Shown: positions 16,365-54,050, counted from the stretch's first letter. The stretch is 60,492 nt of DNA from an uncultured Burkholderiales bacterium (GCA_964473355.1 CAYYOS010000001.1:1-60492); one strand, 5' to 3'. Numbers and translations are program-made. Notes: a model not told the origin generated them from the letters alone.

Positions 16365-19300
16365 GTGGCTTGGTGGGCTATCCTGTCCTTGGGCTTTATT
16401 TTCGCGGTCACCGTTTTGTCGTTGCGCTATTGGGTGCTTCCAAATATAGAAAGTTATCGTGTAAACATTGCTAATGCGGCCTCTCGCGCGATGGGACAAA
16501 AGGTAACTATCGAACGCATTAGCGCCAATTGGGAGCGCGCTCGCCCACATCTAAAATTAGGTGGGCTACAAATTTATGATAAGAAAAATCGCCCGGCGCT
16601 GTTTCTGGATAACGTCGAAGCAACGTTGTCCTGGAGCTCATTACTAAAATGGGATTTACGTCTGCGTACCTTTATCGTGCTTAAACCGATATTAAGCGTG
16701 CGCCGTGAAGCCGATGGTTTAATTTACGTGGCCGGTGCGGTCGTTAATGGCCCACCGGGTGAAGATTCTGCATTCGGTGATTGGTTGTTGCGGCAGCGAA
16801 CAATCATCGTAAAGGACGCAGTTATTGAATGGCGCGATGAATTACGCCAAGCACCCGTTTTAAATTTGCATAAGGTCAATTTAAGATTGTTAAACCGCGG
16901 CGGGCGCCACCGCTTCGGCCTAACCGCCAGCCCTCCTCGGGAACTCTCGCGCCCGCTCGATCTTCGCGGCGAACTTTATGGCAAAACCTTAAACGATTTT
17001 TCCAAATGGCGCGGCGCTTTCTACGCAGCATTAGATAGTGCAGATATGGGCGCTTGGGGAAAGTGGTTACCCTATCCGTTTGAGGTTAAGAAAGGTTTAG
17101 GCGGGATACGGTTCTGGTTGGGATTTAACCAAGGAACGATTAACCATGCCGCTGCGAATTTAAGCCTGTTGGATACGGAACTACGAATAAGGCCGGAACT
17201 GCCGACGATGGAAATTGCTAAACTTACTGGCATCCTAGCGTGGCGCGATCTTGTTCCGGGCTTCCAAGTTCAAGTAAAGCAGCTGGTGGTTAGCGGTAAT
17301 AGCTTAACCATGCCGAACAGTAATGCGCAAATTCGCTATGTGCCGGCGCAGAAAAAAATGCTGGGCTCCGGTGAAATCCGGACAACCCACTTATCCCTGC
17401 CACCCTTAGCCACACTCGCCAATTATTTACCCTTAGAAGGGGAAGTCGCTCAGTCCTTGGCAAAACTGGCCTTACAAGGAAGCGTGAGTGATTTTTCGGC
17501 GCAATGGCAAGGAAACTGGCGGGCTCCGCAAGAATTTTCGCTGGTGGGAAAGTTTAACAACCTGGGATTTCGCAGTCTTAAACAATGGCCGGGCGTGACT
17601 AACCTGACAGGAAGCGTCGAAGCAACCGAGAAATCCGGCAGTGTGTTACTGGATTCACGGAATGTAGTGGCACAAGCGCCGGAAATTATGCCCGAACCCT
17701 TGCAGTTTTCGCAGCTAAAAGGCCGGGTTAATTGGACTGGTATGGGGCCCACATTGCAACTTAAAATTCCCCAGCTGGTTTTTGCCAATGGGCACATGGC
17801 AGGGCAAGCCTCGGGCAACTATAGTTCGGTCGCCAATACTTTAGGTAGTATCGATGTTTCCGCCAAACTCACGCGAGCCGATGCGCGCTATGTCTGGCAC
17901 TACCTACCTTTTATGATCCATAAAGATGTGCGTGATTGGGTTAAGAACGGCCTGGTGGGTGGCACATCCAATGACGTGAAACTAGTTATAAAAGGCAATC
18001 TATCGCGCCTACCCTTCGCTGATAAAAAGTCCGGCTTATTTCAAGTAAAAGCGAAGTTTGTAAATGGCATACTCGACTATGGGCCCGGGTGGCCGCGTGC
18101 GGAAAATATAGCGGGCGAGGTGGTTTTAGAAAATGAAAAAATAGACGTTCGCATTGCCTCCGGCCATATCCACAATATGAAGCTTTCCGGTGTGCAAGCC
18201 ACAATTGCAGATCTTGTTCATGGCAACGAAATCTTACTCATTAATGGTGAAGCAAAAGGTGCAAGTAACGATCTTTTGAAATTCATTGTTGCGAGCCCCG
18301 TATCCGAGTGGCTGCAGGGGGCCACCAGTAACATGGCGGCAACTGGCCAGGGCAAGTTATTATTGAAACTCAGCATACCGCTGCGCCATCCGGAAAATCA
18401 TAAAGTGACGGGTAGTTATCAATTTATCGACAACCATCTCCAAGACAGTAAACAAGGCTGGCCCGCACTGGAGCGCTTAACCGGCGTACTTAATTTTTCA
18501 CAAGATCAAGTTTACGCCAAAGATATTCATGCACAGGCGCTGGGCGGGCCTGTGCGCATGAATATTCAGTCGCATGGCAACGACTTGCAAATCGATTTGG
18601 CCGGCATCGCTGATGCGCAACATCTTAGCCGTATCTACGCCCCCAGCGTCCTGCCTTTTGTCCAGGGAAAGGCCGCTTGGCAAGGTCACGTCTCCACGCG
18701 TGCAAATCAAGCCACGATTAAAATTGATTCCGATTTAGTTGGCGTCGCTGTTAACCTGCCGCAGCCCTTGTTTAAGGCCCCCCAAGAAGCATTAGCGATG
18801 AACTGGGAAAGCCTTCCGGCCCCAGCATCGGCCCACACAATGAAATTCAATTACGGCAACCGTATTGCGGGCAATGTGCTCCAGGCTGCCGATAACCGCA
18901 TAGACCGCGGCGTAATACGCTTAGGCGGCGCTGCCATGCCCAGCGAGCAACCGGGTCTTTGGGTTAGCGGCGAAACCCCCTACTTAGATTTAGACGCGTG
19001 GCGGAACGTGGCAAAACGTATGCAAGCGCCCAGTGGAAACGGTCAAACACTAACGGAGCGCACTTCTGTAGCGGGTGCGGACGTGACAATTGCCAGTCTA
19101 GACGTATTTGAACACCGTATTCATAACGTCAAGTTGGAAGCGAAGCAAAAAGACCAAACGTGGTCGGCAAATATTTCCGCGCGCGAGCTCACGGGTGCCA
19201 TAAGCTGGCAGCCGGAAGGCCGCGGTAAAGTAGTGGCTCGGCTTAAAAGTTTTACTTTTCCCGATAGCGATGGCAATAAATCTGCGGCAACAAGTGGCAC

Positions 19301-20761: not shown

Positions 20762-21004
20762 ATGAAAAAACTAACCCTAACCACTTTGCGCCAACAAATT
20801 TTTCAGATCGCTGACGAAGTTTTGACTACTGGGCAGCCGGTTAGTATTGAACGCAATGGCAAGATCCTGTTGCTCAGTTCGGCAGTCGAATTAAACAAAT
20901 CGAAAAGTTTGAAATTGAAACGTCGAAAACTAATCACGGGTGACGCTGAGTCGCTACCCACAGCAAAGGCATGGGAATGGCGCGAACCGGAAAATCTGCG
21001 CTAA
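20762..21004 (+). CDS. type II antitoxin (Phd/YefM-like)
   Basis: About 80 aa. The MKKLTLTTLRQQIFQIADEVLTTGQPVSIERNGKILLL pattern is typical of Phd/YefM-type antitoxins. Overlaps a PIN gene. Confidence 0.65.
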   Translation: MKKLTLTTLRQQIFQIADEVLTTGQPVSIERNGKILLLSSAVELNKSKSLKLKRRKLITGDAESLPTAKAWEWREPENLR

Positions 21005-21375
21005 TCCACCTGGACACACATATCGTTTGTTGGCTATACGAAGGCCGCGCGGAATTTCTGACCCCGGCGGCATTGCGCGCTATTGAATCGGGCTTGTTGC
21101 AGGTTTCTCCTGTGGTGCAACTAGAACTGACCTATTTACACGAAATTGGCCGCATTAGCCGGGAGGGCGATTATGTTTTGCAGGCGTTGACCAAAGACAT
21201 CGGCCTGAGTGTGGCTGACGTGTCGTTAGCCCAGGTAATAAAAATAGCCGGTGCGCTAACATGGACGCGCGACCCGTTCGATCGCATGATCGTTGCGCAT
21301 GCTATGGTTGCGAATGCGGCACTGGTGAGTAAAGATCGCCTAATCCGAAAGCATTGCGGCAAGGTAATTTGGTAA
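20971..21375 (+). CDS. vapC: PIN-domain toxin (VapC family)
   Basis: LIHLDTHIVCWLYEG N-terminal acidic motif and C-terminal TRDPFDRMIVAHA...LVSKD...I. The exact start is uncertain (ATG at 20971 or 20977). Confidence 0.7.
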   Translation: MGMARTGKSALIHLDTHIVCWLYEGRAEFLTPAALRAIESGLLQVSPVVQLELTYLHEIGRISREGDYVLQALTKDIGLSVADVSLAQVIKIAGALTWTRDPFDRMIVAHAMVANAALVSKDRLIRKHCGKVIW

Positions 21376-21384
21376 TGCGCCGAT

Positions 21385-21468
21385 AAACCCACTTCATTTC
21401 TGACGCCGGTAGATAAAGATGCGGCTGAGAGTGAACGGTAGATGGATTCTCCGGGAAATAGCGTGCGG
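21385..21468 (-). pseudogene. 84-bp stub of a third DUF2235 toxin C-terminal copy
   Basis: Minus-strand translation is RTLFPGESIYRSLSAASLSTGVRNEVG. It is about 89% nucleotide-identical (by eye) to 22367-22450 and homologous to Rhs residues RGAAVAFPLESIMGRASPAGVTRIERGF. The homology ends 9 bp from the vapC stop. Confidence 0.7.
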
Positions 21469-21475
21469 GTCAAAC

Positions 21476-21994
21476 CTATCGCCATTTATAGACGGCCCAC
21501 TTCATTGAAACGTCATCGTCCTTAAAGGTAAACGTTAGCTGCAACAGTTTGTTTTTAGGATCAGCGTGGACTTCTTGCAGGGCTGCATCGGGGATGACCG
21601 TGAGGTCGATCGTTTTATGGTACCGTTTGCCTTGAGCGAGGAACTGATCGTAACCCGCGTCGACCGTATGTTCACCAAGTCCCGTTAACCACTCAAAACT
21701 TATCGATGGGGGGAATTTTTTAAAGCCATCGGCTCCGACTAAGGCCATTGTTTTTGGACCCCGTTTAGAAACAAACCCTCCATTTCTACGTTCTAAGCTG
21801 CCCCCGCGGTCTAGAGGCGGATAGGTAATGAAGAGAACGTAAACTTCCTGCCCTGTAGACTCTAGATTCATCTCCGTCCCCACCATCGGGCGCTTGGAAG
21901 CAGCGCTGCAGCCGCCTAACGTCATCAGACTAAAGATGCTCACCAGCAAAAGTCTTAATAAGCCATATCGAGACCATAATTCGTTTTTAACCAT
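21476..21994 (-). CDS. lipoprotein, candidate immunity protein for the orphan toxin half
   Basis: 172 aa. Signal peptide with lipobox (SLMTLGG|C). Lies directly downstream of, and overlapping, the orphan toxin fragment. Shares FP..(x)..W..G and L.F.FKDD.V...W.V blocks with the 22733-23341 protein. Confidence 0.5.
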   Translation of the reverse strand: MVKNELWSRYGLLRLLLVSIFSLMTLGGCSAASKRPMVGTEMNLESTGQEVYVLFITYPPLDRGGSLERRNGGFVSKRGPKTMALVGADGFKKFPPSISFEWLTGLGEHTVDAGYDQFLAQGKRYHKTIDLTVIPDAALQEVHADPKNKLLQLTFTFKDDDVSMKWAVYKWR

Positions 21995-22494
21995 GCCGCA
22001 TAACCTTTCATGTCAATCGTGCCCCGTAATACTTTATCGCCGTGGGCGTCCGCCTTTGCCGTGGGATAGGGCTGTAAATACGAGAGCGAATTGCTGTAGT
22101 TCATACCCGCCACGGGTGCCCCTTTTTGGTCGTAGGAAGCGCCGCCCTGATATCTAAACTTGCGGTCACCCGAATCATCGAATCCGCTGCCGATGGCTTT
22201 TGTGTTGCTGTCGTGCCAAATGGGGTTTTTAACTGAAGTATATTCAGAAGGCAATGCTTTGAGGCTTACACCAGCAAATTTCGCTTGCTGATACATCCAG
22301 CTCAAAGCAACATCAGACAAATCGCCCTCCGCGTATCCCCCGCCAATATCGGAATGCGCGCCAATGAAACCCACTTCATTTCTAACGCCGGTAGCTAAAG
22401 ATGCGGCCGAGGGTGAGCGGGAGATGGATTCTCCGGGGAATAGTGTACGGTGTTCATTGACGGCATCCTGCTCAATTGCTGCTAGACGCGAGCA
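21955..22494 (-). pseudogene. orphan C-terminal half of a DUF2235 (Tle1-like) toxin domain, with no N-terminal half and no canonical start
   Basis: The frame is open for 179 codons (CSRLAAIEQDAVNEHRTLFPGESI...GFIGAHSDIGGGYAEGDL...GTIDMKGYAAWLKTNYGLDMAY). It aligns with the last ~172 aa of the Rhs protein (AVALNEYRGAAVAFPLESI...GFLGSHSDIGGGFPDGDL...GTVDMQGYLSWLNSNGYNINMTIQ). It lacks the FDGTGN and GFSRGA blocks. Confidence 0.75.
22367..22450. repeat. 84-bp direct repeat partner of 21385-21468
   Basis: aaacccacttcatttctaacgccggtagctaaagatgcggccgagggtgagcgggagatggattctccggggaatagtgtacgg versus the stub. About 9 mismatches, same orientation, 982 bp apart. Confidence 0.75.
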
Positions 22495-22732
22495 TCATAG
22501 ATGTTGGGTTCCTTGGAGGCGCGCAGCTAGTTTTCTGGGAATCATATGCCCGGCTTGCGCCAGTCAATATCCTTTCGCCACGCTACATCTTCTGGGTTGC
22601 ATTGGCCGCCGGACATGATGGTGTTGAGTAGGCTTGTGCAGAATGGGATTCTTTTCGTCTGTAATTCTGCTGGCAACGGACTCATTGTGATGCAAGCGCG
22701 CTTCTGCATCCTCGCTTATACAAACGACCAAA

Positions 22733-23341
22733 TCACTTTCTAATCCACGCCGGGTTATACCAAGAAGCTTTTTCCAGCGGGCCGTCGGTGCAATTGGGAT
22801 GGGATTGATAAGGACTGGTCTCACATGGAAAGTCACCGCCGTGTAGGGAATAGACCCAGCCCGCCCCGGGGGCTGATTCCTGCACATCCCACGCTAACAG
22901 CACACCATCGTCCTTAATACGGAACTGTAGCCGTATCGTGCCCCTCCCGGATGCGACATATTCAAACACCTCTGTAGGAATTCGGCTTAATACTTCTACC
23001 CTATAATTGCCGGCAATTTTGCCGGTTGTCCAATATAAGCCCGCCGCTTGGTCGGTACCCTCACGCCACGTCACATCCACCCAGCGGGGAAAGGGTGCGT
23101 TGCCTAGGCCAAATATCCCCCCATTTTTTGGGTTTAATAGCGCTGGTCCGAATAAGCGATATCCGGAATCAGAAACTGCCTGAACACCCTCCTTATTAGA
23201 TGCCCCTTTCGCAAGTTCATAGGTAACGACTATACCCCCCGCACGCCGTAGTTGGCGATCTGATTCGGGTTTGCCCGCATGGGCGCCGCCCGCTAACCAC
23301 GCGAATAAACTGACCATAAGCAACACGCCCATCGTATTCAT
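22733..23341 (-). CDS. secreted protein, candidate cognate immunity protein of the Rhs DUF2235 toxin
   Basis: About 202 aa from the ATG at 23341 (a GTG at 23353 is also possible). Sec signal peptide (MNTMGVLLMVSLFAWLAGGAHA|G). Starts 8 bp after the Rhs stop. Paralogous to the 21476-21994 lipoprotein. Confidence 0.5.
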   Translation of the reverse strand: MNTMGVLLMVSLFAWLAGGAHAGKPESDRQLRRAGGIVVTYELAKGASNKEGVQAVSDSGYRLFGPALLNPKNGGIFGLGNAPFPRWVDVTWREGTDQAAGLYWTTGKIAGNYRVEVLSRIPTEVFEYVASGRGTIRLQFRIKDDGVLLAWDVQESAPGAGWVYSLHGGDFPCETSPYQSHPNCTDGPLEKASWYNPAWIRK

Positions 23342-23349
23342 TGTTGTCC

Positions 23350-26300
23350 TCACTGAATTGTCATATTGATGTTGTAGCCATTGCTATTTAGCCAACTCAG
23401 ATAGCCTTGCATATCCACGGTGCCGGAAACGCTATCTCTCGAATTCGGGTTAGGTTTGTAAGCAATAAAGGGTTTGGTATCAGCATAGCTCATGCCAAAG
23501 GTTGTGGCGTGGCGTTGCTTATCGGTAGCGCCGTTCGTATAACGCACAGTACGGTCTTCGCTGGTGGCGGTGGGCCCGCCCGATGGTGCGCCAAAAAATA
23601 AATTGCTGCTCTTGTCGTGGAGTACAGGATTAGAGACAATGGATCTTACTGGGTTAGCCATGTTCACCCCAGCGGTCCTAGCCTGATCGACCATCCAAAT
23701 TAGTGCCACTCTGGCAAGATCGCCGTCGGGAAATCCTCCACCGATATCCGAATGCGAGCCAAGAAATCCTCGCTCGATCCGCGTTACCCCAGCAGGACTA
23801 GCCCTCCCCATGATGGATTCTAGGGGAAATGCCACCGCCGCGCCACGATACTCGTTAAGCGCGACGGCTTGCGCAACATAGCGGAAGTTATTAGGGATGT
23901 TGAGCTGATAGCTGCCGGTGTGGGTGCTTAAGACCGTATCGAATAAACCCATAAAGCGGAAGTTGAGTTTTTGGCATTTGGCAACTTCAATACCGTTTAT
24001 ATCTTTTTCGGTGTAGCTGTACCAGCCGTTCCTGGTTTTGGCCGCGATCCGGTTGGCAAATTCGCGTGCTTCAGCGGCGCCCCGGCTAAACCCCGTGATA
24101 TCGACATCGAAGGCGGTTTCGTCATTCACAGAACTTGAATAATCGCCTAAATACTTAATCATCGCCATAATGCGCGCGGGGCCCGTATAGGCTCTAGCAA
24201 TATCCCCGACACCACCGATATCCCAGGGGGCCGGGCCAATCCCCGTGGCGGGGTCTAAAGTGCCCGGACCCGTGATGTAGAAAGGCTGTCCATCCTGATA
24301 GAGGTCACGAAATTTCACCACATTAGACAACGTAGCATGATTACTTTCATCATTCCCCGTCCCATCAAACGCAAACAATATCAACCCATAGGGATCGATG
24401 TAACTTAAGGGGTTATTGTTGACGTAAGCATAAGCATTCGGGCTGCCGAGTTGTGCTGCTAACTTGCCTAAGGGATCGGGCGTAAGATAGCGACCGGCTT
24501 TGGGATCGTAATAACGCGCGTCGTTGTAATACAATCCGGATTCTTGGTCTTCCCACTGTCCGGGCAAGCGCAGTGCAAGATGGTAGGCGGCAGGCTGTGC
24601 TTGGGCGGGGGCACGGCTTAGCGCGCTGGTTTTAATCAACTTGCCATAGGGCGCATAGTCGGCCTGCCAAAGTGTTTGCCCTTGTGCGTTCGTCGCGGCG
24701 ATCGGTGCACCCAAATGATTTCCATGGACAAAGGCGAGGCGGTCGGCGTCGCCGCTTAATTCCCGCCACATGAGCTGGGCGGTTTGTCTTAAGTTGTGCG
24801 CAAATCCCTCAACCGGCGCCTGCAGTGCTTTAGGCTGTTTCGCATCCAGTGTGGCCACCAGTCGATCGCCCAGCCAGATGTACTGGCGGGTGATCTGTCC
24901 TTGTGTGTTTAGGTCAGCCAAGCGCTGGCGCGCTTCGTTGTAAAGGGTGTATTCCGTTTGTGCTCCACTTTCCTTACTTATTCTTAAGCCCCGGTAGTTG
25001 TACCGGTAGCGAGCAATGTCTTTGCCCTGCTCTCGAATGGCGGTGAGTTGGCCTAAGGCATTCCAGACGTAGTCACGACCCAACGCCGACTGCGTTATCA
25101 ATACATTGCTCTGCGGGTGGTAATTGGTTTTGCGAGTTTGGCCCATTTCATTCACCGGCACGTGTTCTTGCGCTAACACGCGGTTGCCCTGACTATCGTA
25201 GTTGTAGCGCCACACACTAGCGTTGTTAATTCCCGCGCTGCTTTGTGAAACCGGTATCGGTGCCGGCAGAGTGTTGGGGAGTGTGGCTTGTGCGGCTATC
25301 AACTGGTTTTGGCTGTCGTAGGCATAGGCTTGGGTGGCCTGAATACCGTGACCTTGTTGTTTTTGTAAAAGCACGTTGCCCGCTTCGTCGTAGAGCAATC
25401 GGGCATCAAACAGAGCTTGTCGGTTGGCAGGGATACCGAGTGCGCCGGGAAATTTATTTGGAGCTTGCGCATGTGCTTCCGGTAAGACGGCACCCAAGAG
25501 TTCGCGTAGGTAATAAGGGCTAGAGGAGGGCGGCGATACGGCCGCCATTTTCAGTGGCTGCGCGCTTATGTCTCTGGGCTGTGTGTAGACCACGCGTGCC
25601 AGTACACCTGCTTTGCTTCGTTGCCATTGGCCTTGGACGCCATTTCCGTAAGTCGTGCTGCGTAGACCAATTAAATCGCGTTCCAAGTCTTTAACAATGG
25701 TTTGCCGACCCCAGCCGAAGAAGGCCAAGGGGCGCATTTGCTGGCTCAAAGCGATGATCTGGCCTTGCCCGTTGCGCTCGTAAATTACTTTAGTCCCGTC
25801 GGGCAAGCTCTCGCTGGCTAGGGCGCCATCAGCCGCGTAAGCGTAGCGCGTGACATGGGTAGCCTCAGCGCCATTGACAAGTTTGAGGGTAACAGTTTTT
25901 ATGACGGGCTGTCCGCGTTCGTTATAATGGATACGTTCGGACTGATTGGGATGTTTGACTTCGATGAGGCGGCCGTGCTCATAGCGCCAAGTCGTCGTTT
26001 GCGCTTCGCCGGTTTTTGGCAGGACGGTGTAGCGGACGCGTTGGCCGGCTAGGTCATAGGCATAGTGGTGTACATCCCCTAGAGTATTGGCCTGTTCCAC
26101 TAATTGATTAGCCGCGTTATAACGGTTGATGATGCTGCCATGACTCACGCTGATCGTGGCCACAACCCGGCCAAAGTCATCCATTATGGTTTGAAATGAC
26201 GACGTGTTAGGAACGTGGTTGGTGGGAGATTTGTCATAGGCCACTTGACGTACGAAGCCTGTATTGTCTACTACCTGTACCAAGCGGTTGAGGTGGTCAT

Positions 26301-28632
26301 AACGGTAATGTTCGGATTGTGCGAAGCTCTTCGTGCTGACTGTGCTGCTTAGGAGATGGCCTTCCGTGTCGTACTGCGCGCGTTTCAGGATACCCAGCGC
26401 CTCGGCCTGCCACAGCAGGCGACCACTCACGTCGAAGGCCTGCCGGGTTTGCGGGCGATAGGTTTGGTAAGCTTTATCCTTGCTCCCATTGCCGTTATTG
26501 AAGTCACCCATCCCTGTCTCAATTCTATTGCCTAAGGCATCGTATTTAAAACTATGTACTACGGGTTGGATGCCCGCTTGCGCCCAATTCGCACCGCTGC
26601 TAATGAGGCGGATGAGTTGGCTTCTGGCGTCATAGTCAAAAATGGTTTTGAAGCCCTGAGCATTACTCACTGCCGCAGTACGCCCCACCTCATCGTATTG
26701 CATCGTATTAGTAAAGCCACCGGGGGTGGTCATGGTGGTGATAAAACTCCCCCGCCCATCCCACTCATACCTCGTAATATCCGAATCCTTGGGACTATTC
26801 GTCGGTCCATTCTTAAGCGGCCCATCCACTTCCACCAAGAGACTTCGACGATTGATAAGATGATAGCGGTAGCGGGTGGTGCGAGTGATGGGCGTCGCCT
26901 CTCCATCGCTGGTGCTCACCGCGTCGCCACGCTGGCGAAGTGAGGCCTGGTAAGCCGCCGCGCCTTCTTGTTTGGCATGGGTGGGGGTTAAGGCGTGAGG
27001 CCCGCGGTTTAATTGCGATGGCAGGCCGTTCGTTGAGGCACGCACGTGTTGTAACCCCATGACCGGTTTAAATTCTGGCAGTACTGGCGCATAGCCACTT
27101 TCAGTAATCTCTGTTGGCTGGCCCCGCTCATTATAGGTAATCCGGGTGGTGACTTCTTTACCCGGTATCACACTCGGCCGGGCAATGAGAATGGGACTTA
27201 AGTTAAGTCTTATCAAGCTATCCTGGGTGTCGGATTTATTTGCTTGCGCGGGTGCATGCATCGCATACTCAACGCGCACTTGCCGTTGGGGTTTGCCGGG
27301 TTTGCCATTGGTGTACGCTAGACGGCTGATGGAAAGTGTTCTGCCATATCGATCCAATTCCATTATGTTCGAGTGTATGGCTTGGCCTTGGGTGTCCAGT
27401 TTCGTCGTCTTAATTAACCGCCCCAGATCATCATAGCCATAGCGCACGTTGACTTCGCCGCAGGAGGCGCAACCCACGCCTGCTACTTCTATTAAGCGAT
27501 ATTCGTTGCCGATTACGCCGTGCTTATAGTTGGTCTTTTGTCCCAAGCTATTGGTTAATAGCGTGGTCGCCGTTTGGCCTTCTATCACACTGTTGCTGCT
27601 ATATTGCAGACGCACCTGCTCAATACCTGCTTGTCCCGGTTTTGGTTTTTCTCCCCGGTAACTTAGCACAGCCCGACCTTGATGGTCATAGTCCCAAGTA
27701 CTCAAACGCTGCGTAGTAGGCTTACTGTTGCCGGTGCTCTGAAGGCTTATTCCCGTTAACAGCGTGGGCTGGTTTACGTCTTCGTAATGGTAATGACGGC
27801 GAACGCCGGGGGCGTTCGGTAACCCAGGGAAAGTGACTGCAGTCAGGTTACCCACTTGGGCGCCATCGTTGGGATGTTGATAAACAAAGCGTCCGACGGG
27901 ACTAGTTATGGCGGTAATGCCACTAAACCCAGTGGCGTTGTTGGGGGCATATTCCAAGCGTAACTGGCGGCCTTGGGGATCCGTGACCTTGACGAGCAGC
28001 CCCTGGGGGTTGCGCGTTAAGTGTAAGGCTTCACCGCTGGGGGCAACAATTTGGGTGAGCTTGCCTTGGTGGTTAAACGTCAAGCGCCGCCCATTTGCCC
28101 AGTCCCACGTATATTCTTCCCCATAAGCGCTTTTGCGAATGTGTATTTGCCCATGGGCGGGATCTTGACTGGCGCATTGATTCGGATTTTTAGGATCGCG
28201 GATAAAGATAAGGCGCGTGCCATCGGCTTGCATCACTTGTAAGGTATTGCGAACAGCATAAAGATCAGTTTCATAGGATAGCCGCCAACCCCGGCCGATG
28301 CTGCCCATCGCACCATTAGGCTTAGCGTAGGCGCTGTTGTAGTGGCGAATAATCTCTAAGCCCAGCACACCGGGCAGCGGGGGCATATCCACTTCTTGCT
28401 GGTATTTGTTCCCGCTCACGACATTAATCGGGTTGCCCGCACCCAGATTGGTTTGACTTTGATTGCCAAGGCTTGCAGGACCCGTGCCCTCGCAGGGTGC
28501 GCCGCCCGGACTCGGTCCGCAGGTGGCGGGGGTAGCTTGCGCTAAGGCAGCACCGGGGGTGACTAAGCTGGTAATTAAGAGGAGTGTGTTGAGAAGACGG
28601 CGTGACATAGACGTTAACTTAAGTTTCTTCAT
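23350..28632 (-). CDS. Rhs/YD-repeat polymorphic toxin with N-terminal Sec signal peptide and C-terminal DUF2235 lipase-like domain
   Basis: Start set to the ATG at 28632 (MKKLKLTSMSRRLLNTLLLITSLVTPGAALA|QA). GNPINVVSGNKYQQEVD plug motif, dozens of YD repeats (YDxxGR/YxYDxxGN), and the Rhs core end HLGAPIAATNAQGQTLWQADYAPYG...GLYYNDARYYDPKAGRYLTPDP...NNPLSYIDPYGL. Confidence 0.9.
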   Translation of the reverse strand: MKKLKLTSMSRRLLNTLLLITSLVTPGAALAQATPATCGPSPGGAPCEGTGPASLGNQSQTNLGAGNPINVVSGNKYQQEVDMPPLPGVLGLEIIRHYNSAYAKPNGAMGSIGRGWRLSYETDLYAVRNTLQVMQADGTRLIFIRDPKNPNQCASQDPAHGQIHIRKSAYGEEYTWDWANGRRLTFNHQGKLTQIVAPSGEALHLTRNPQGLLVKVTDPQGRQLRLEYAPNNATGFSGITAITSPVGRFVYQHPNDGAQVGNLTAVTFPGLPNAPGVRRHYHYEDVNQPTLLTGISLQSTGNSKPTTQRLSTWDYDHQGRAVLSYRGEKPKPGQAGIEQVRLQYSSNSVIEGQTATTLLTNSLGQKTNYKHGVIGNEYRLIEVAGVGCASCGEVNVRYGYDDLGRLIKTTKLDTQGQAIHSNIMELDRYGRTLSISRLAYTNGKPGKPQRQVRVEYAMHAPAQANKSDTQDSLIRLNLSPILIARPSVIPGKEVTTRITYNERGQPTEITESGYAPVLPEFKPVMGLQHVRASTNGLPSQLNRGPHALTPTHAKQEGAAAYQASLRQRGDAVSTSDGEATPITRTTRYRYHLINRRSLLVEVDGPLKNGPTNSPKDSDITRYEWDGRGSFITTMTTPGGFTNTMQYDEVGRTAAVSNAQGFKTIFDYDARSQLIRLISSGANWAQAGIQPVVHSFKYDALGNRIETGMGDFNNGNGSKDKAYQTYRPQTRQAFDVSGRLLWQAEALGILKRAQYDTEGHLLSSTVSTKSFAQSEHYRYDHLNRLVQVVDNTGFVRQVAYDKSPTNHVPNTSSFQTIMDDFGRVVATISVSHGSIINRYNAANQLVEQANTLGDVHHYAYDLAGQRVRYTVLPKTGEAQTTTWRYEHGRLIEVKHPNQSERIHYNERGQPVIKTVTLKLVNGAEATHVTRYAYAADGALASESLPDGTKVIYERNGQGQIIALSQQMRPLAFFGWGRQTIVKDLERDLIGLRSTTYGNGVQGQWQRSKAGVLARVVYTQPRDISAQPLKMAAVSPPSSSPYYLRELLGAVLPEAHAQAPNKFPGALGIPANRQALFDARLLYDEAGNVLLQKQQGHGIQATQAYAYDSQNQLIAAQATLPNTLPAPIPVSQSSAGINNASVWRYNYDSQGNRVLAQEHVPVNEMGQTRKTNYHPQSNVLITQSALGRDYVWNALGQLTAIREQGKDIARYRYNYRGLRISKESGAQTEYTLYNEARQRLADLNTQGQITRQYIWLGDRLVATLDAKQPKALQAPVEGFAHNLRQTAQLMWRELSGDADRLAFVHGNHLGAPIAATNAQGQTLWQADYAPYGKLIKTSALSRAPAQAQPAAYHLALRLPGQWEDQESGLYYNDARYYDPKAGRYLTPDPLGKLAAQLGSPNAYAYVNNNPLSYIDPYGLILFAFDGTGNDESNHATLSNVVKFRDLYQDGQPFYITGPGTLDPATGIGPAPWDIGGVGDIARAYTGPARIMAMIKYLGDYSSSVNDETAFDVDITGFSRGAAEAREFANRIAAKTRNGWYSYTEKDINGIEVAKCQKLNFRFMGLFDTVLSTHTGSYQLNIPNNFRYVAQAVALNEYRGAAVAFPLESIMGRASPAGVTRIERGFLGSHSDIGGGFPDGDLARVALIWMVDQARTAGVNMANPVRSIVSNPVLHDKSSNLFFGAPSGGPTATSEDRTVRYTNGATDKQRHATTFGMSYADTKPFIAYKPNPNSRDSVSGTVDMQGYLSWLNSNGYNINMTIQ
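23353..24381 (-). other. C-terminal toxin domain of the Rhs protein: DUF2235 / Tle1-like alpha/beta-hydrolase (343 aa after DPYGL)
   Basis: ILFAFDGTGND..., DITGFSRGAAEAREF (GxSxG-type nucleophile elbow), GLFDTV and GSHSDIGGGF are hallmark blocks of DUF2235. The DPYGL cleavage motif is at 24382-24396. Confidence 0.75.
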
Positions 28633-29498
28633 GAAGATTTGCCTGGCTCCAGGGAGCGAAGCGCGGTACTTTTTTGGGTCGGTAGACAACAATAATTATT
28701 CCCGCAGCCCGGATCGCAGGAGGCATCAAATTGACTGCAGCCCGGTGGCCGGGGTGGCGCAGGTCCTGCCTCCCCGGGCTCAGGCTCGGGATTTCCCGGT
28801 CCCCCGGGGCTGCCTGTCGTTCCCGGATCATCTTGATTGGCACCGGGGTTAGAGCGGTAGGCGGCGTGTTCATAAGCCGGACTTTGCATCCTAACTACGG
28901 CATGCGCCACAATGGGGATGCGGCCGGCTTGGTAATAAGCGCGGTGCTCGGGGTTTAAGGTGCCAAGCACTGTAAGGAAGGGTCTTGCGATGGAAAAAGG
29001 CTTATAGCCATAGATCACCCGAATCTTAAGGAGATTCGCGTCTTGAATATTAACGCCGGAGTGATTTGAGACTGAAGCGGGTCGAAAGCTTAAGTTGTCA
29101 TTGGGGATTTGCCGGATATTGTTCTCAGTAATGGCGTAATCGGCAAAGGCTTCTTTAGTGGGCGAGAGGATTTGAATGGTGGCGTGAGTGGATAAGTCTG
29201 CTTGTGCTTTAATAAAAGAAGTCAGGATGGCACTACTGGTTTTACCACCCCCGTATAAGGGAATAAGACCACGAGCTAAACCTTTTTGTATGGGTTCAAG
29301 CCGAGCATTCTCGAGGGCACCGGCTCTAGCCGCTTCAAACGTGGCGTAATTAAGTAGACTCTTACCCATCATCACAAAGCCTGCTTGGATCATGGCTAAA
29401 GTCAGACCGAGGATTATGGGGATGACGATGACGAATTCGACTAAGGAGGCGCCGAGGAGATTTTTACTGGCGTTACTTGTTATTCGAGTTCTCCCCAT
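28629..29498 (-). CDS. TadE/TadG-like pseudopilin-type protein with Pro/Gly-rich, Cys-rich C-terminal tail
   Basis: N-terminus NLLG|ASLVEFVIVIPIILGL (G at -1, E at +5, hydrophobic helix) followed by FEAARAG, as in the TadE-like domain. The tail is PGGPGNPEPEPGEAGPAPPRPPGCSQFDASCDPGCGNNYCC. The stop TGA overlaps the Rhs ATG (ATGA at 28629-28632). Confidence 0.6.
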   Translation of the reverse strand: MGRTRITSNASKNLLGASLVEFVIVIPIILGLTLAMIQAGFVMMGKSLLNYATFEAARAGALENARLEPIQKGLARGLIPLYGGGKTSSAILTSFIKAQADLSTHATIQILSPTKEAFADYAITENNIRQIPNDNLSFRPASVSNHSGVNIQDANLLKIRVIYGYKPFSIARPFLTVLGTLNPEHRAYYQAGRIPIVAHAVVRMQSPAYEHAAYRSNPGANQDDPGTTGSPGGPGNPEPEPGEAGPAPPRPPGCSQFDASCDPGCGNNYCCLPTQKSTALRSLEPGKSS

Positions 29499-29710
29499 TT
29501 CTAATCTAGCTCGTTTTCTCAGAGCCCGGAATTATTACAAGGAGATATGCCGCTGTCAAGCGTCATTATGATATTGTAATTTCTGGCGATACCTTTCTCA
29601 ATGCTTGTGCGAGCGGGCTTATAAGTTAACGGTTAATCAGCAATGTAGGCCGCAAAAACTCCACATCAAATGATTAGGGAAATGTTTTAAAGAATGAAAA
29701 CTAACGGAAG

Positions 29711-30145
29711 CTATGTGCCCGCAGAAAAACACTGCATTTCCAGCAGTTTGGCTGCCTTGTTAAGGCGCGCATCAAAGCTGGCGAAAAAGATAGGCAAGCC
29801 GGAAATGCGACGAACCTCGTAAGCGGCAGCTAGCTGCACGCTGTCGTAGCCGCGCAACGCAAAGGTATCGGCATATTCTCCAGCCCGCTCAACCAGTGCT
29901 TGATTCAATTCCGTAACCACTAAGTGTGGCCAATCTTTTGCCAGCGCCGCCTTCGCTTGCTCGATAATAGCAGCATCTTTAGCCACTTCGCGTGCGCGCC
30001 GCGATAATGCCGCATGTGCTTCCGCCCAGGCAATACGGCATACCGCTACTGCCTCGGCTTCTGATACATGCTGCTTCAATTCCTTGCTTCCCGTCTCAAT
30101 AATATAAAGTTTAATAAGCGCAGAGGTATCGCAAAACAATATCAC
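29711..30145 (-). CDS. vapC: PIN-domain toxin (VapC family)
   Basis: 144 aa. MILFCDTSALIKLY N-terminal Asp motif and YDSVQLAAA in the C-terminal half. 4-nt overlap with the upstream antitoxin. Confidence 0.75.
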   Translation of the reverse strand: MILFCDTSALIKLYIIETGSKELKQHVSEAEAVAVCRIAWAEAHAALSRRAREVAKDAAIIEQAKAALAKDWPHLVVTELNQALVERAGEYADTFALRGYDSVQLAAAYEVRRISGLPIFFASFDARLNKAAKLLEMQCFSAGT

Positions 30146-30405
30146 CCGCGGTCTTCCAGCACCATTGCAGAAATTGTCTTGCCGCCTGCCTGCAACCCAA
30201 GCGCGGCGCCTTTAGGTTTACCCCCTTGCCAGGTTGCCATGCCGGCTGCCAATAAACGTGATAACCCCGCGCTATCGGTTTGAGGTACACCAATAACCCG
30301 AGCCACCACTTTGCGATGCGAGGTTAATTCCAGCATCTTCCCGGATTGCGTCTCGCGGACATACTGCGCCAAATGAGACTTGAATTCTTGCATAGAAACT
30401 TTCAT
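30142..30405 (-). CDS. type II antitoxin (Phd/YefM-like)
   Basis: 87 aa. MKVSMQEFKSHLAQYVRETQSGKMLELTSHRKVVARVIGV. Confidence 0.65.
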   Translation of the reverse strand: MKVSMQEFKSHLAQYVRETQSGKMLELTSHRKVVARVIGVPQTDSAGLSRLLAAGMATWQGGKPKGAALGLQAGGKTISAMVLEDRG

Positions 30406-30455
30406 TACGACCCTTTTTATCTTACTTAAATAAGTATTATGACCTTTTTATGCAG
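30406..30455. promoter_or_regulatory. candidate operator of the 30142-30405 antitoxin operon
   Basis: Inverted repeat tactta-aa-taagta (30423-30436) flanked by direct repeats gaccctttttat / gacctttttat, immediately upstream of the antitoxin start. Confidence 0.35.
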
Positions 30456-30573
30456 AAAGTCAAAGGCCCTTCAAGGTTCATAATTAAAGACGGGGGGTTG
30501 GACTGCAAGACGAAAAAGAAAAAACGGCGGAACGAAAATACGGTTTTGAAAAGAAAGGGAATGAGTGAAAGTG

Positions 30574-31833
30574 TTAGCCTCTACGCATAGAATCAAAGAA
30601 GTCATTATTATTTTTAGTGGCTTTGATTTTATCCAACAAAAATTCCATGGCTTCGAGATCGTCCATGGGATAGAGCAAGCGACGCAGCACCCAAATTTTT
30701 TGTAGATTATCGGGCTTGATTAACAGCTCTTCTTTGCGGGTGCCGGAGCGGTTGACGTTGATCGCAGGGTACAAGCGTTTTTCGGCCATACGACGGTCAA
30801 GGTGAATTTCCATATTGCCTGTGCCTTTAAATTCTTCATAGATCACGTCGTCCATGCGCGAGCCGGTTTCTACCAAAGCAGTGGCGATAATGGTCAATGA
30901 CCCACCTTCTTCAATATTACGCGCTGCGCCAAAAAATCGTTTGGGCCGCTGCAGCGCATTCGCGTCCACACCACCCGTGAGCACTTTTCCTGAAGCCGGA
31001 ACAACGGTATTATATGCGCGCGCCAAGCGGGTGATGGAATCCAACAAGATCACCACATCTTTTTTATGCTCAACTAAACGCTTGGCCTTTTCTAACACCA
31101 TTTCGGCGACTTGCACGTGGCGCGTGGCGGGCTCATCAAACGTAGAGGAGACGACTTCCCCTCGAACGGAACGTATCATTTCCGTGACTTCTTCCGGGCG
31201 CTCGTCAATCAACAAGACGATTAAATAGCATTCCGGATAATTCGCCGCAACGGAATGGGCAATGTGCTGCAACATAACCGTCTTGCCGCTTTTAGGCGAA
31301 GCGACCAACAATCCGCGCTGTCCTTTACCAATCGGCGCAATGATATCGATAACGCGCCCGGTAATGTTTTCTTCTGCCTTAATATCACGCTCTAAAATGA
31401 GCGCATCAGTTGGGAATAGAGGAGTTAAATTCTCAAAAAGAATCTTATGTTTGGAATTTTCCGGGGGTTCCCCGTTAACGCTATCGACTTTAACCAGCGC
31501 AAAGTAGCGTTCGCCGTCTTTAGGCGTGCGGATCTCACCTTGAATGGTATCGCCGGTATGCAGGTTAAAGCGCCGGATTTGGCTGGGGCTTACATAAATA
31601 TCGTCGGGGCCCGCCAAATATGAGGTGTCTGGGGAGCGCAAAAATCCGAAACCATCTTGCAGGACTTCAAGCGTGCCTTCGCCGAATATGCTTTCACCCT
31701 TACGCGCCTGGTTTTTAAGTAAGGCAAAAATTAAATCTTGCTTGCGCAGCCGGTTCGCACCTTCGATTTCGTTGGATATTGCCATATCCACCAGCTCGGT
31801 GACGTGTAGTTCTTTTAACTCAGATAAGTGCAT
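30574..31833 (-). CDS. rho: transcription termination factor Rho
   Basis: [18 protein letters not shown]..., FGFLR RNA-binding domain, Walker A ASPKSGKT. Start set to the ATG at 31833. Confidence 0.95.
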
Positions 31834-40010: not shown

Positions 40011-41936
40011 ATGCATAAGCTTTCTTTTTTGTTCTCGTGGCTCGCGATGCTTATCCTAGCCACGACCGGCCTGGCCCATGGCGCCTCATCCCTAGACTAC
40101 ACGGATCGCATTATTATCAGGTTCAAGAGCGAGGCCACGAAAAGTGCTAACCCCGCCATGATGAAAGCTGCCAAAGTAGCTCAAACTAAGGCCCTAAGCA
40201 CAAAAACAGGTATCCCGCTTGCCCACTTCCGCAGCATGTCGCTGCAGGCGGACGTGCTTAAGCTGTCCACGCGCATGCCGCTGGATGAGGTGGCGCGTCT
40301 CACCAAAAAATTAGCCGCGAGTCCGGACGTGGCCTACGCCATACCTGATTCCATCAAGCGGGTAGCGCTACGCCCCAACGACCCACTTTATAACCAGCAA
40401 TGGCACTATCACCCCAGCACCATCGAGCGCGGCAGTGCCAACGTCGAGCCGGCCTGGGATATCACGCAAGGCTCCCCGGATTTGGTTATCGCCGTGGTGG
40501 ACACGGGGGTGCTACCTCATGCGGACTTTGCCGGGAGACTGCTGCCGGGCTATGATTTTATTTCTGAAGTCGCCCGCGCCAATGACGGGGATAACGTTGG
40601 GCGCGACAACGACGCCAACGATGCCGGCGATTGGGTGAGCGCGGCTGAATCTAACGATTTTTTTGGTCCTTTCTATCTTTGTGGCGAATCCGAGAGCTCC
40701 TGGCATGGCACCCACGTGGCGGGCACCATCGCAGCCAATACCAACAATGCGCTGGGTGTAGCGGGTATAAATTGGAACGCTAAAATTCTCCCAGTACGCG
40801 TGTTGGGTAAATGCGGGGGGTATGACTCGGACGTTGTGGATGGCATGCGCTGGGCTGCAGGCCTAGAAGTCGCGGGTGTGCCAAACAATCCAACGCCAGC
40901 TAGGGTAGTGAATCTAAGCTTAGGCGGCTTTGGCGACTGCCATGTCGTTTATCAACAAGCCATTAATGAGGTTGTTGCTTCCGGCGCCGTGGTGGTGTTG
41001 GCGGCCGGCAACGAGGCTGCCGATGCTTCATTCTTTAGCCCGGGCAATTGCAGCAACGGCATTACCGTGCACGCCAATGATAGGAATGGCGCGCCCGCTT
41101 TTTATTCCAATTTCGGTACGGTAGTGGAGATTAGCGCCCCCGGCGGCGATACCGAGTTCCCGGGTGGAGGGGTCTTGTCCACCCTGGACAGTGGCACCAC
41201 GGTGGCAGTTAACGACAGCTCTTATAAAGAATATCAGGGCACCAGCATGGCCGCCCCGCACGTGGCTGGGGTTGTGTCACTCATGCTGTCGGTTAATCCT
41301 GCGCTGACGCCACCCGAGGTCCTAGAAATCCTGCAGGCCACATCACGACCCTTCTCGGCGGACGTCGTGCCCTATTACTGCACGATAGGTCAGTGCGGGG
41401 CGGGCATCGTCGATGCGGTTAAGGCGGTATCGGCCGCAAAAGCGCGCGGCAAATCAACCACCACTGTGGTGGAATTTTATAATTCAATGTTAAAGCACTA
41501 TTTCCTCACCGCGCATGCCAACGAGGCCACGGGGATAGATTTAGGCTTAGCCGGCCCTGGCTGGAGCCGCACCGGATTAAGTTTCAACGCTTGGCTTACT
41601 GCGGAAGCCGCACCTGCCAATGCAGTTGAGGTTTGTCGTTTTTATGGCTCGCCGGGCTTGGGGCCAAACTCGCATTTTTATACCGTGGCGGGCGAGGAGT
41701 GCGAGGGTATTAAACGCGCTCAAGGGTGGATATGGGAGCAGGGAAACAAGTTCTATATTATTCCTTCCTCAGCCGGTGCTTGCCCTAGCGGCACCCTGCC
41801 GGTGTATCGCACGTATAACAACCGTTATATTTTTAATGATTCCAATCACCGCTATACCACTAGTTTGCCCGTCTATAACAGTATGATTGCCAGCGGTTGG
41901 ATAGGTGAGGGCGTGGTGATGTGTGCCCCTAATTAA
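40011..41936 (+). CDS. secreted S8 (subtilisin-like) serine peptidase with C-terminal repeat module
   Basis: Signal peptide (LATTGLAHG|A). Catalytic triad contexts VAVVDTGV, HGTHVAGTIA and GTSMAAPHVAG. The C-terminus has three FYN/FYG/TYN...H(F/R)YT aromatic repeats. Confidence 0.85.
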   Translation: MHKLSFLFSWLAMLILATTGLAHGASSLDYTDRIIIRFKSEATKSANPAMMKAAKVAQTKALSTKTGIPLAHFRSMSLQADVLKLSTRMPLDEVARLTKKLAASPDVAYAIPDSIKRVALRPNDPLYNQQWHYHPSTIERGSANVEPAWDITQGSPDLVIAVVDTGVLPHADFAGRLLPGYDFISEVARANDGDNVGRDNDANDAGDWVSAAESNDFFGPFYLCGESESSWHGTHVAGTIAANTNNALGVAGINWNAKILPVRVLGKCGGYDSDVVDGMRWAAGLEVAGVPNNPTPARVVNLSLGGFGDCHVVYQQAINEVVASGAVVVLAAGNEAADASFFSPGNCSNGITVHANDRNGAPAFYSNFGTVVEISAPGGDTEFPGGGVLSTLDSGTTVAVNDSSYKEYQGTSMAAPHVAGVVSLMLSVNPALTPPEVLEILQATSRPFSADVVPYYCTIGQCGAGIVDAVKAVSAAKARGKSTTTVVEFYNSMLKHYFLTAHANEATGIDLGLAGPGWSRTGLSFNAWLTAEAAPANAVEVCRFYGSPGLGPNSHFYTVAGEECEGIKRAQGWIWEQGNKFYIIPSSAGACPSGTLPVYRTYNNRYIFNDSNHRYTTSLPVYNSMIASGWIGEGVVMCAPN

Positions 41937-49093: not shown

Positions 49094-49165
49094 TGGCTGT
49101 CCTCCCTTTTCGGCGTCTTTTACGGAGTCGCCTACAAGCGTTACTATTCTAGAGTTACCCCGGCT

Positions 49166-49192
49166 CGTCATTCGCTCGAGAGGCGGGAATCC
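49166..49192. repeat. REP-like palindromic repeat copy
   Basis: cgtcattcgctcgagaggcgggaatcc. A further degenerate half-copy (attccagcgagaatcacgg) lies near 49261-49279. Confidence 0.5.
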
Positions 49193-49325: not shown

Positions 49326-49694
49326 CTATGTCGTCTCGAAAGCCAGGCGCATCGACTTGGCAATCTCGCCGAGACGTTTGTCCCGTGTCCACAGTTGCAC
49401 GTTTCCCGCTAGAGAAATTCCGGATAGAAGGTGGGCGTCGACGTAGCCGATACCCTTACCCATTAAGTCGTGCCGCTCGATAAAAAAGAGTACCTCCTCA
49501 TTAGAAGCCATCGGGGCGGCAGGCAAGTCCTGCAATAAAGATAAAATAGCTTTGCGGTTCTTTAGATTGCCACAAGCCAGTTCCCCAACGATGAAAGGGT
49601 GCGCCATCACCCGACCTGTGTTTAGGAGTTCCACCAGTACCGGCTCACCGGCTTGTAGATGATCAATCCAGACCGAGCTGTCGACCAAAATCAC
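49326..49694 (-). CDS. vapC: PIN-domain toxin VapC
   Basis: MILVDSSVWIDHL... and GIGYVDAHLL motifs. 4-nt overlap with vapB. Confidence 0.8.
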   Translation of the reverse strand: MILVDSSVWIDHLQAGEPVLVELLNTGRVMAHPFIVGELACGNLKNRKAILSLLQDLPAAPMASNEEVLFFIERHDLMGKGIGYVDAHLLSGISLAGNVQLWTRDKRLGEIAKSMRLAFETT

Positions 49695-53313: not shown

Positions 53314-53769
53314 TCAGACGTTCGGCAGCTGATCTACCGTCAGCACGGGGATGCGGGCTGACACTACGCTGAGGCGCAGGTCCCCGGTAACAAATACCGT
53401 ACAACTCGCTTGGATGGCGGTGGCGATGTGCAGCGCGTCTAACAGCTTGAGCGCCGGATAATCAGCCCTCAATTCGGCGGCAAGTTCCACGGTTTGCTCG
53501 TCCAGCGTGTGAATGAATACCGCGTTGTAGCCTGATAACAATGCACGATAACGGTCCGCCAGTTCGGTTTGACGGAGTTGCAAGGGCCGGACCAGCACTT
53601 CAGCCCGTGTAATCAGGCTAGTGCTGGCAGCGCATTGCTCCAAATAAATCATGCGAATTATTTGACCGATGGCCTGCCGTAATGCCCCAGCCTGTGCCTC
53701 GAACGCATAAATGAAAATATTACTGTCGAGATAAAGCGTTGTGCCGCGCAATTCGTCTAGCGATTTCAT
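53314..53769 (-). CDS. vapC: PIN-domain toxin (VapC/FitB-like)
   Basis: 151 aa. LYLDSNIFIYAFE N-terminal motif and LLDALHIATA in the C-terminal half. 4-nt overlap with the antitoxin. Confidence 0.75.
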   Translation of the reverse strand: MKSLDELRGTTLYLDSNIFIYAFEAQAGALRQAIGQIIRMIYLEQCAASTSLITRAEVLVRPLQLRQTELADRYRALLSGYNAVFIHTLDEQTVELAAELRADYPALKLLDALHIATAIQASCTVFVTGDLRLSVVSARIPVLTVDQLPNV

Positions 53770-54050
53770 CGATCCTGGCGCAGCTCATCCATGTACTGGT
53801 TTAGCTCGTCTAGCGAGTTGATGTGAGCATAGCGGTTGTCTGTGATTGCCGCTTCAATGTCATCAATGGTGAGGGGGTCATATTTGAGTTTAATCCGCGG
53901 CGGTAGTTTAGGCGCAGTACGAGGGGCAGCGATGGCCTGCTCGATGAGCGCTACAGCTTCCTTATTAAGCGATCGGTGATTGCGCTGTGCTTGGCTCTTC
54001 AGCGCGGCGTGCAAATGCTCGGGCAAGTTTTTGATCACGAGAGTACTCAT
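53766..54050 (-). CDS. antitoxin (FitA / Arc-type, 'plasmid stability protein'-like)
   Basis: Start set to the ATG at 54050. MSTLVIKNLPEHLHAALKSQAQRNHRSLNKEAVALIEQAI is a ribbon-helix-helix pattern. Confidence 0.7.
   Translation of the reverse strand: MSTLVIKNLPEHLHAALKSQAQRNHRSLNKEAVALIEQAIAAPRTAPKLPPRIKLKYDPLTIDDIEAAITDNRYAHINSLDELNQYMDELRQDR

Follow-up and report, generated by a model that had tools for sequence, protein, structure and literature searches.

TadE and TadF, the minor pseudopilins of Flp/Tad (type IVc) pili, carry a class-III signal with Gly at -1 and Glu at +5 followed by a hydrophobic alpha-1 helix, and belong to loci that also encode RcpC, a secretin, a CpaF-type ATPase and two platform proteins. 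A Tad-like apparatus, Kil of Myxococcus xanthus, is implicated in the contact-dependent killing of prey; its effectors are unknown, and no link to Rhs proteins or to a pseudopilin has been reported for it (PMC8460266). Here we analyzed a TadE-like gene in a 60,492-nucleotide stretch of DNA from an uncultured Burkholderiales bacterium (GCA_964473355.1, CAYYOS010000001.1:1-60492), which is referred to as the window. The gene (28629-29498, minus strand) is translationally coupled to the gene of an Rhs polymorphic toxin with a Sec signal, and we call its product the carrier. Because related genes show conserved synteny with a Tad-like cluster and are fused to toxins, we read the carrier, with a probability of roughly 0.75, as a trafficking module of pseudopilin type that belongs to a Tad-like (type IVc filament) apparatus for the export of polymorphic toxins, and the window as holding a satellite cargo cassette.

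The carrier shares the signal, the motif and the helix of TadE and TadF, and its relatives are encoded with the same set of machine genes. It differs in being about 100 amino acids (aa) longer, in having a head without detectable similarity to known pilins, in bearing a variable Pro/Gly/Cys tail, an OmpA-like domain or a whole toxin, and in being tied to toxins rather than to adhesion. The type II secretion system (T2SS) follows the same two-step logic: after export by Sec, folded proteins are pushed through a secretin by a type IV filament machine, the pseudopilus (GspG-K), and the likely role of the carrier at the interface of pseudopilus and cargo would resemble that of the minor pseudopilin tip complex. 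The motor and secretin found here are of the Tad type, however, and not of the GspE/GspD type, and we know of no T2SS substrate that has its own or a fused pseudopilin, as is the case here. The PAAR, VgrG and Eag adaptors of type VI secretion systems (T6SS) and the LXG adaptors of the type VII secretion system (T7SS) are likewise modules fused to a toxin or encoded just upstream of it, and they likewise occur in satellite carrier-toxin-immunity islands with orphan toxin/immunity cassettes downstream. In contrast to these, the carrier is a pilin-like membrane protein, its toxin has a Sec signal, and the machine is a type IV filament rather than a contractile or ESX-type one. The modular type IV pilins PilB and PilC of Streptococcus sanguinis have an extra functional domain grafted to the C-terminus, as is seen here. 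To our knowledge the grafted pilin modules described so far are adhesive, whereas here an Rhs cage of 1400-2000 aa or a HINT toxin has been grafted on.

Kil has a CpaF-type ATPase with an N-terminal FHA domain (PMC8460266), as have the loci described below; the two machines are likened by this FHA plus T2SSE/CpaF architecture, and the predicted effectors here, in contrast to those of Kil, are evident from gene order. In the Bdellovibrio hit locus, Bd0109, an exported RHS/YD-repeat protein, lies beside Tad-type pilus genes and is interpreted as a pilus regulator bound by Bd0108; a toxin domain, an immunity gene or a TadE-like partner has not been described for it (PMC3818213). The likeness to Bd0109 is drawn from its description, and the proteins analyzed here are complete toxins. 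This hit locus was the sole published Rhs-tad adjacency that we found, and the openly searchable full-text literature yielded no description of a link between TadE or Tad and Rhs or PT-HINT toxins. TadE, pilins and secretins are absent from a 2012 comparative survey of how polymorphic toxins are trafficked, and the route by which the T6SS-independent Rhs4 and Rhs5 of Myxococcus are exported is only a presumed one (PMC10433427).

It is an open question how Rhs toxins with a signal peptide pass the outer membrane of Gram-negative bacteria and arrive at their targets without a T6SS, and the carrier family offers a testable answer. The family ties a Tad-like machine to explicit cargo by gene order and gene fusion, and it establishes a pilin-like domain in the trafficking of polymorphic toxins. 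The system is a variant that combines two known kinds, polymorphic toxin systems and Tad-like machines. We consider it moderately likely that a Tad-like filament machine, whose toxin-specific pseudopilins are either joined covalently to Sec-dependent Rhs and PT-HINT toxins or form pairs with them, serves as a toxin delivery route of diderm bacteria, carrying the toxins across the outer membrane and possibly presenting them on a filament to neighbours. If so, a type IV filament route would join the trafficking modes of polymorphic toxins, and the carrier gene would be a marker for new toxins and immunity genes.

A TadE-like gene coupled to an Rhs toxin gene

The carrier gene starts with ATG and encodes 289 aa. 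Its product matched the Pfam family TadE (PF07811) over residues 16-58 (E=4e-11), covering all 43 positions of the model, and the score of 43.3 bits exceeds the gathering threshold of 22.9. The leader peptide, MGRTRITSNASKNLLG (residues 1-16; 29451-29498, minus strand), is followed by ASLVEFVIVIPIILGL. The resulting motif, G16/ASLVE21F, places Gly16 at -1 and Glu21 at +5, and a prepilin peptidase is predicted from it to cut after Gly16. Across 112 carrier homologues Glu21 is invariant and Gly16 nearly so (at least 90% conserved). Given the PF07811 match and the conservation of these two residues, the carrier falls under the Pfam definition of TadE and has the G/xxxxE motif. The conserved body (residues 17-215; 28854-29450, minus strand) consists of the alpha-1 helix, with FEAARAG at residues 54-60, and an alpha/beta head, and is the cassette common to the fused toxins. 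It is followed by a variable Pro/Gly-rich tail (residues 216-289; 28632-28853, minus strand) containing a cluster of five Cys, PPGCSQFDASCDPGCGNNYCC (residues 251-271; 28686-28748, minus strand). A word-indexed search returned 1611 homologues at E<=1e-3, and an exhaustive search put the family at 922 representative clusters; NCBI annotates the homologues as TadE/TadG family pilus assembly proteins.

The TGA of the carrier gene (28629-28631) overlaps the ATG of the Rhs gene (28632-28630) in an ATGA at 28629-28632. The Rhs gene (23350-28632, minus strand) encodes 1760 aa, and its product begins with MKKLKLTSMSRRLLNTLLLITSLVTPGAALA, continuing as QATPATCGPSPGGAPCEG. A Sec signal (residues 1-31) is followed by a Cys loop, CGPSPGGAPC (38-47), a DUF6531 domain (66-143), RHS repeats (Pfam RHS_repeat, E=7e-37) and an RHS core (1301-1334). 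After a DPYGL cleavage motif (1413-1417), the C-terminal part, from about residue 1418 to 1760, is a Tle1-like lipase with a GFSRG motif. The protein therefore has the hallmarks of an Rhs polymorphic toxin, namely RHS/YD repeats, an RHS core, a DPxGL motif, a C-terminal toxin and an adjoining candidate immunity gene. A preliminary description of this DNA had noted the 289-aa open reading frame (ORF) with its Gly at -1, Glu at +5, hydrophobic helix, FEAARAG, Pro/Gly tail and Cys cluster, as well as the ATGA overlap and the Sec signal of the Rhs protein. All of these details held, the proposed TadE kinship was borne out by the PF07811 match, and the lipase domain can now be added.

The same description had pointed out that the 60 kb contain no tad or T6SS gene, which we confirmed in two ways. 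Pfam scans of most of the larger ORFs found no structural gene of a tad, T2SS, type IV pilus or T6SS locus, and a tblastn search of the window with all proteins of the Tad-like loci matched only TadE and Rhs. These results bear on the possibility that the Rhs protein is a T6SS effector, served by a T6SS encoded elsewhere, and that the gene upstream of it encodes an unrelated membrane protein. The lipase domain does come from a T6SS-associated Tle1-like family. The toxin, however, has a Sec signal and lacks VgrG-binding N-terminal domains, Pfam gave no PAAR match in it, and T6SS genes are missing from the 60 kb; VgrG, PAAR, Hcp and other T6SS families are likewise not listed in the gene tables available for related loci. 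The protein thus lacks the features of a T6SS effector, and we regard this explanation as barely credible.

The carrier-toxin pair in Tad-like clusters and gene fusions

The genomic context of the carrier was surveyed in 80 loci from one-genome-per-species contigs together with six contexts obtained by exact look-up, of which 78 informative, non-duplicate loci were tallied. Gene order was derived from tblastn searches in which every gene product of three reference loci served as a query. A polymorphic toxin, Rhs or PT-HINT, lay downstream of the carrier in 63 of the 78 loci: a DUF6531-Rhs gene started within 400 bp of the carrier in 47, an Rhs gene followed after one to three intervening genes in seven, carrier and toxin were fused in two, and a PT-HINT toxin with a Sec signal was found in seven, its C-terminus being Ntox21, a colicin-type "Cytotoxic" domain or unassigned. 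The ATGA overlap between carrier and toxin recurred in at least 10 loci. Given this recurrence, the adjacency of TadE and Rhs cannot be put down to chance. The pair was conserved across betaproteobacterial and gammaproteobacterial species, and culturable genera with the family include Delftia, Thauera, Massilia, Duganella, Roseateles, Ideonella and Verminephrobacter.

The pair stands at the 3' end of a complete Tad-like cluster in 65 loci, with the machine genes directly upstream. The order is nearly universal: TadG, (X303), TadE2, X224, Flp, RcpC, secretin, FHA/CpaF, two T2SSF platform proteins, DUF192, (a glutaredoxin-like protein, Grx-like), carrier and toxin. Flp is about 57 aa long, and the Grx-like gene encodes a signal peptide. 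The ATPase matched Caulobacter CpaF with E=5e-117 and has an N-terminal FHA domain, and the closest solved relatives of the secretin were 8jvb and the Tad secretin RcpA. The speculation in the preliminary description that the pseudopilin is an adaptor to a Tad- or T2SS-like machine is thereby supported. Ten loci, like the window, hold satellite pairs away from any machine; in Verminephrobacter a full locus (L075) is accompanied by a satellite (L076), and the carriers and the Rhs proteins of the two are each about 90% identical. Two satellite carrier/PT-HINT contigs binned as Bradyrhizobium (L037) and Candidatus Paceibacteria (L044) resemble the Actimicrobium loci L054 and L059 with near-identical gene content, and are probably mis-binned betaproteobacterial contigs.

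Gene fusions provide a second line of evidence. In loci L010 and L041 a single polypeptide consists of the TadE N-terminus, the body, a Pro/Gly linker, DUF6531, RHS repeats, the RHS core and the toxin, and the continuous linker replaces the Cys-rich tail and signal peptide of the split form. A word-indexed search with the N-terminus of the L010 fusion found no further fusions and had suggested that they are rare. This was overturned by an exhaustive phmmer search with the carrier body alone (residues 16-215), in which 48 of the best 150 representative clusters had the body at the N-terminus of proteins of 660-2350 aa. According to Pfam, all 21 long fusions contained TadE and RHS repeats, and 20 of the 21 DUF6531 and the RHS core; their C-terminal toxins were a Tle1-like lipase (4), DUF6765 (8), a deaminase, WHH and a colicin DNase. 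TadE was likewise found in all 27 mid-sized fusions and PT-HINT in 21 of these, and the PT-HINT fusions ended in AHH, WHH, LHH, Endonuclease_NS, Tox-REase-5 or RNase domains. Both the Gly at -1 and the Glu at +5 are kept in the fused toxins. When the body domains were placed in a neighbour-joining tree, fused and split forms were intermingled, with no fewer than 21 changes of state, an overestimate if some of the short proteins are fragments, and the carrier of the window adjoined fused forms. Furthermore, the fusion genes of L085 and L086 occupy the very slot in the machine locus that the split pair holds elsewhere. Recurrent fusion of this kind is classic Rosetta-stone evidence that carrier and toxin would act as one unit.

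The fusion in L086 is of the TadE-PT-HINT type, with an Imm49 gene and then a second TadE-DUF6531 gene downstream. This second gene (15802-17190 of L086) stops after 462 aa and is overlapped by an ORF at 17187-18140; it may represent another fusion toxin that has been disrupted or split.

These findings weigh on two further explanations. The first takes the carrier for a common minor pilin of a Tad pilus that serves adhesion; the Rhs gene, as Rhs loci are recombination hotspots, would have come to lie beside it without any functional link. Its PF07811 match, the TadE/TadG annotation of its homologues and the 15 loci without an adjoining toxin would fit such a pilin, but coincidence does not account for adjacency in 63 of 78 loci from many genera with two unrelated toxin architectures, for the recurring ATGA, for satellites that always carry carrier and toxin together, or for frequent covalent fusion. 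We take the fusions to have largely refuted this explanation already, which leaves it highly improbable. The second, modelled on the proposal for Bd0109, is that the Rhs protein is a periplasmic regulator of pilus extrusion or retraction, with the TadE-like protein as its partner on the pilus side. There too an exported RHS-repeat protein is encoded next to tad genes, and two of four other RHS elements lie near pilus genes (PMC3818213). The proteins here, on the other hand, are complete toxins with an RHS core, a DPxGL motif and diverse C-terminal lipase, nuclease or deaminase domains, and they are accompanied by downstream immunity genes, such as Imm49 in L086, and by orphan toxin/immunity cassettes. 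A regulatory role is therefore very unlikely.

The carrier is also modular below the level of whole genes. The window is 94% identical in DNA to a soil-metagenome contig (L001) only over 28795-29454, that is, residues about 15-235; the L001 carrier sits inside a machine locus, and its leader and upstream region, tail and Rhs gene do not match those of the window. Roseateles hydrophilus has two carriers 12.9 kb apart on one contig, 93% identical over 285 aligned residues, whose tail ends differ; one precedes an Rhs gene and the other a PT-HINT toxin. Tails partnered with PT-HINT end in PPC[LF], and those partnered with Rhs show several lineage-specific Cys patterns. Five carriers have no tail, all of them without a neighbouring toxin, and four of the five end at MQSPAxxP. 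Judged from these sequences, the simplest reading is that the conserved body would dock to the machine and the variable tail would match the cargo.

Structure of the carrier and its proposed route

An AlphaFold2 model of the carrier, built with the 112 homologues, had a mean predicted local distance difference test (pLDDT) score of 82.7 and values above 90 over residues 20-210. It shows a 46-residue hydrophobic alpha-1 helix (residues 17-62), an alpha/beta head with a four-stranded sheet and a disordered tail.

Several observations weigh against the carrier being a module of a toxin-exporting filament. A Foldseek search of the PDB with this confident model gave zero matches at E<=0.001, a profile search of PDB sequences returned noise alone, and in an hhalign comparison with TadE2, the second TadE-like protein of the locus, only the N-terminal ~70 residues aligned. 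Together with an NCBIfam search that gave no match for the carrier, these searches detected no homology of the head to known pilins, and the head domain forms a separate family. Among unassigned ORFs within 10 kb upstream of 84 loci, a prepilin peptidase candidate did not recur; its gene may lie elsewhere. The toxin beside the carrier is missing from 15 of the 78 loci, and Pfam found no hidden effector downstream in seven of these (L025, L029, L042, L047, L052, L055 and L073), where the genes were housekeeping or had no Pfam match. The window itself, over 60 kb, lacks the machine genes. An assembled Rhs cage may be wider than a Tad secretin, and secretion, filament assembly and killing are predictions from gene content. 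Finally, in about a dozen carriers the tail closes with an OmpA-like domain (PF00691) that binds peptidoglycan. This is difficult to reconcile with an extruded pilin and would better fit a tether spanning the periplasm.

The OmpA-ended carriers are those of L024, L031, L033, L039, L048, L065-L067, L072, L077 and L079, along with P0053, P0144 and P0147; wherever downstream sequence exists, the Rhs gene still follows. A second kind of fusion involves DUF192, normally a separate gene just 5' of the carrier, which in some homologues (P0064, P0065, P0079, P0091, P0099, P0102, P0111, P0128, P0138 and P0186) is joined to the carrier N-terminus ahead of the prepilin-like signal. Its position hints that DUF192 may act on the cytoplasmic or leader side of the carrier.

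The carrier could then be an unassembled protein, anchored in the inner membrane and spanning the periplasm, that serves as a tether or chaperone, holding the toxin, split or fused, at the machine or anchoring it to peptidoglycan or the outer membrane, so that the toxin is released or handed over while the carrier stays in the cell. Apart from the OmpA-like and DUF192 fusions, a long Pro/Gly linker resembling periplasm-spanning linkers, a head unlike known pilins and the prepilin peptidase not found in the loci all speak for such a tether. A simple anchor, however, would not need the invariant Glu at +5 and the nearly invariant Gly at -1, retained even in fusions, and a full filament-assembly set accompanies the carrier gene. 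We consider the tether, the main rival reading, unlikely.

Under the favoured reading of a filament-borne trafficking module, the route would comprise five steps. The carrier would enter the inner membrane by its class-III signal (G/xxxxE) and be trimmed by a prepilin peptidase, and the Rhs cage would reach the periplasm by Sec, for which its signal peptide is visible. In the periplasm the variable Pro/Gly/Cys tail would bind the cognate toxin, a peptide bond taking its place in the fused relatives. The FHA-CpaF ATPase and the two platform proteins would then build a short filament by polymerising the carrier with Flp, TadE2 and TadG, and this filament would move the toxin through RcpC and the secretin to surface display or release. 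Lastly, the autoproteolytic Rhs core would free the Tle1-like lipase on or in a target cell. From the third step onward this scheme is drawn from synteny, from gene fusions and from how T2SS and Tad systems are known to work.

The cysteines of the carrier tail follow a parity rule. After the MQS motif, the Cys count was odd (1, 3, 5, 7 or 9) in 73 of the 75 Cys-containing tails of the loci and, among homologues from the database, in 160 of 166 tails. By contrast, the stretch of the mature toxin that precedes DUF6531 had an even count (2, 4 or 6) in 43 of 49 cases, and the linkers of all 17 fused forms were odd. As these sequences are related to one another, a binomial P value for the rule is inflated; the count, however, changes between lineages and the parity holds. 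Since the tails are odd, the toxin N-termini even and the fused linkers odd, the unpaired Cys is assigned to the module, and parity implies that one unpaired Cys would be a conserved property of it. A simple disulfide between the carrier tail and the Rhs N-terminus, which had been suggested in the preliminary description, is not supported, as the parity pattern does not predict such a bond.

Genes for redox proteins recur beside the carrier or between carrier and Rhs. One encodes a DsbG-like thiol:disulfide interchange protein (NF008657, E=1.9e-15) and another a glutaredoxin-like/SH3 protein with a signal peptide; they were seen in L001 (11804-12904), L003 (9254-9988), L007, L017, L035, L040, L053 and L075. 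Their recurrence suggests a dedicated periplasmic redox handling of the Cys-rich parts, and the unpaired Cys together with periplasmic thiol-disulfide enzymes might control attachment or release. Another recurrent gene, at the border of the Tad-like toxin loci or within them, encodes an apolipoprotein N-acyltransferase-like (Lnt-like) protein. It lies at the 5' edge in L011, L012, L013, L016, L022 and L026, and is also present in L025 (8367-9995), L051 (8409-9971) and L069 (10785-12446, with LNT_N and CN_hydrolase domains); it could be either a dedicated paralogue or the housekeeping lnt.

The cassette and its surroundings in the window

Besides the carrier and the Rhs lipase toxin, the satellite cassette would comprise a promoter, an immunity gene and an orphan toxin/immunity pair, and it would be served by a machine encoded elsewhere in the genome. 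The promoter candidate is sigma-70-like, TTGACA-17-AATAAT with an upstream TG (29531-29559, minus strand), and ends 33 bp 5' of the carrier ATG. It was the top site within 20800-30600, with 11 of 12 consensus positions, and as a candidate by consensus would provide the TadE-Rhs-immunity unit with a transcription start of its own. The gene following Rhs (22733-23353, minus strand), whose reading frame overlaps the Rhs stop by 4 bp, encodes 206 aa with an N-terminal Sec-type signal. No Pfam match was obtained for it, and from its position it is likely the immunity protein; an export signal is what would be expected, since protection would be directed against a lipase acting in the periplasm. Farther downstream lies an orphan toxin fragment (21955-22374, minus strand), the C-terminal piece of a second Tle1-like lipase, which is 39% identical to Rhs residues 1622-1758. 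It is accompanied by a candidate orphan immunity gene (21476-21994, minus strand) for 172 aa with a lipoprotein-like signal (LGGC), likewise assigned by position and without a Pfam match.

On the 5' side, the cassette is bordered by a Phd/PIN toxin-antitoxin pair, rho and trxA, and the remaining window holds housekeeping genes, including those for GlnE, Acs, YhdP, AddAB-like proteins, MetE and DnaB. Three PIN-domain modules were found in the window: a Phd/YefM plus PIN pair directly 5' of the carrier (29711-30405, minus strand), a solitary PIN gene just 3' of the Rhs cassette (20971-21375, plus strand) and a FitA-like ribbon-helix-helix (RHH) plus PIN module (53314-54077, minus strand). The two that flank the TadE-Rhs cassette could mark an inserted island.

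A stand-alone Tle1-like phospholipase of 610 aa (47339-49171, minus strand) has a full-length domain of family PF09994 (E=1.4e-75) and is only weakly similar to the lipase domain of the Rhs protein (37.5% over 40 aa). Rhs, TadE and T6SS genes are absent from its surroundings, and a small unassigned ORF lies just upstream (49326-49694). The window also encodes, amid housekeeping genes, a subtilase (Peptidase_S8) with a C-terminal DUF5648 domain (40011-41936, plus strand).

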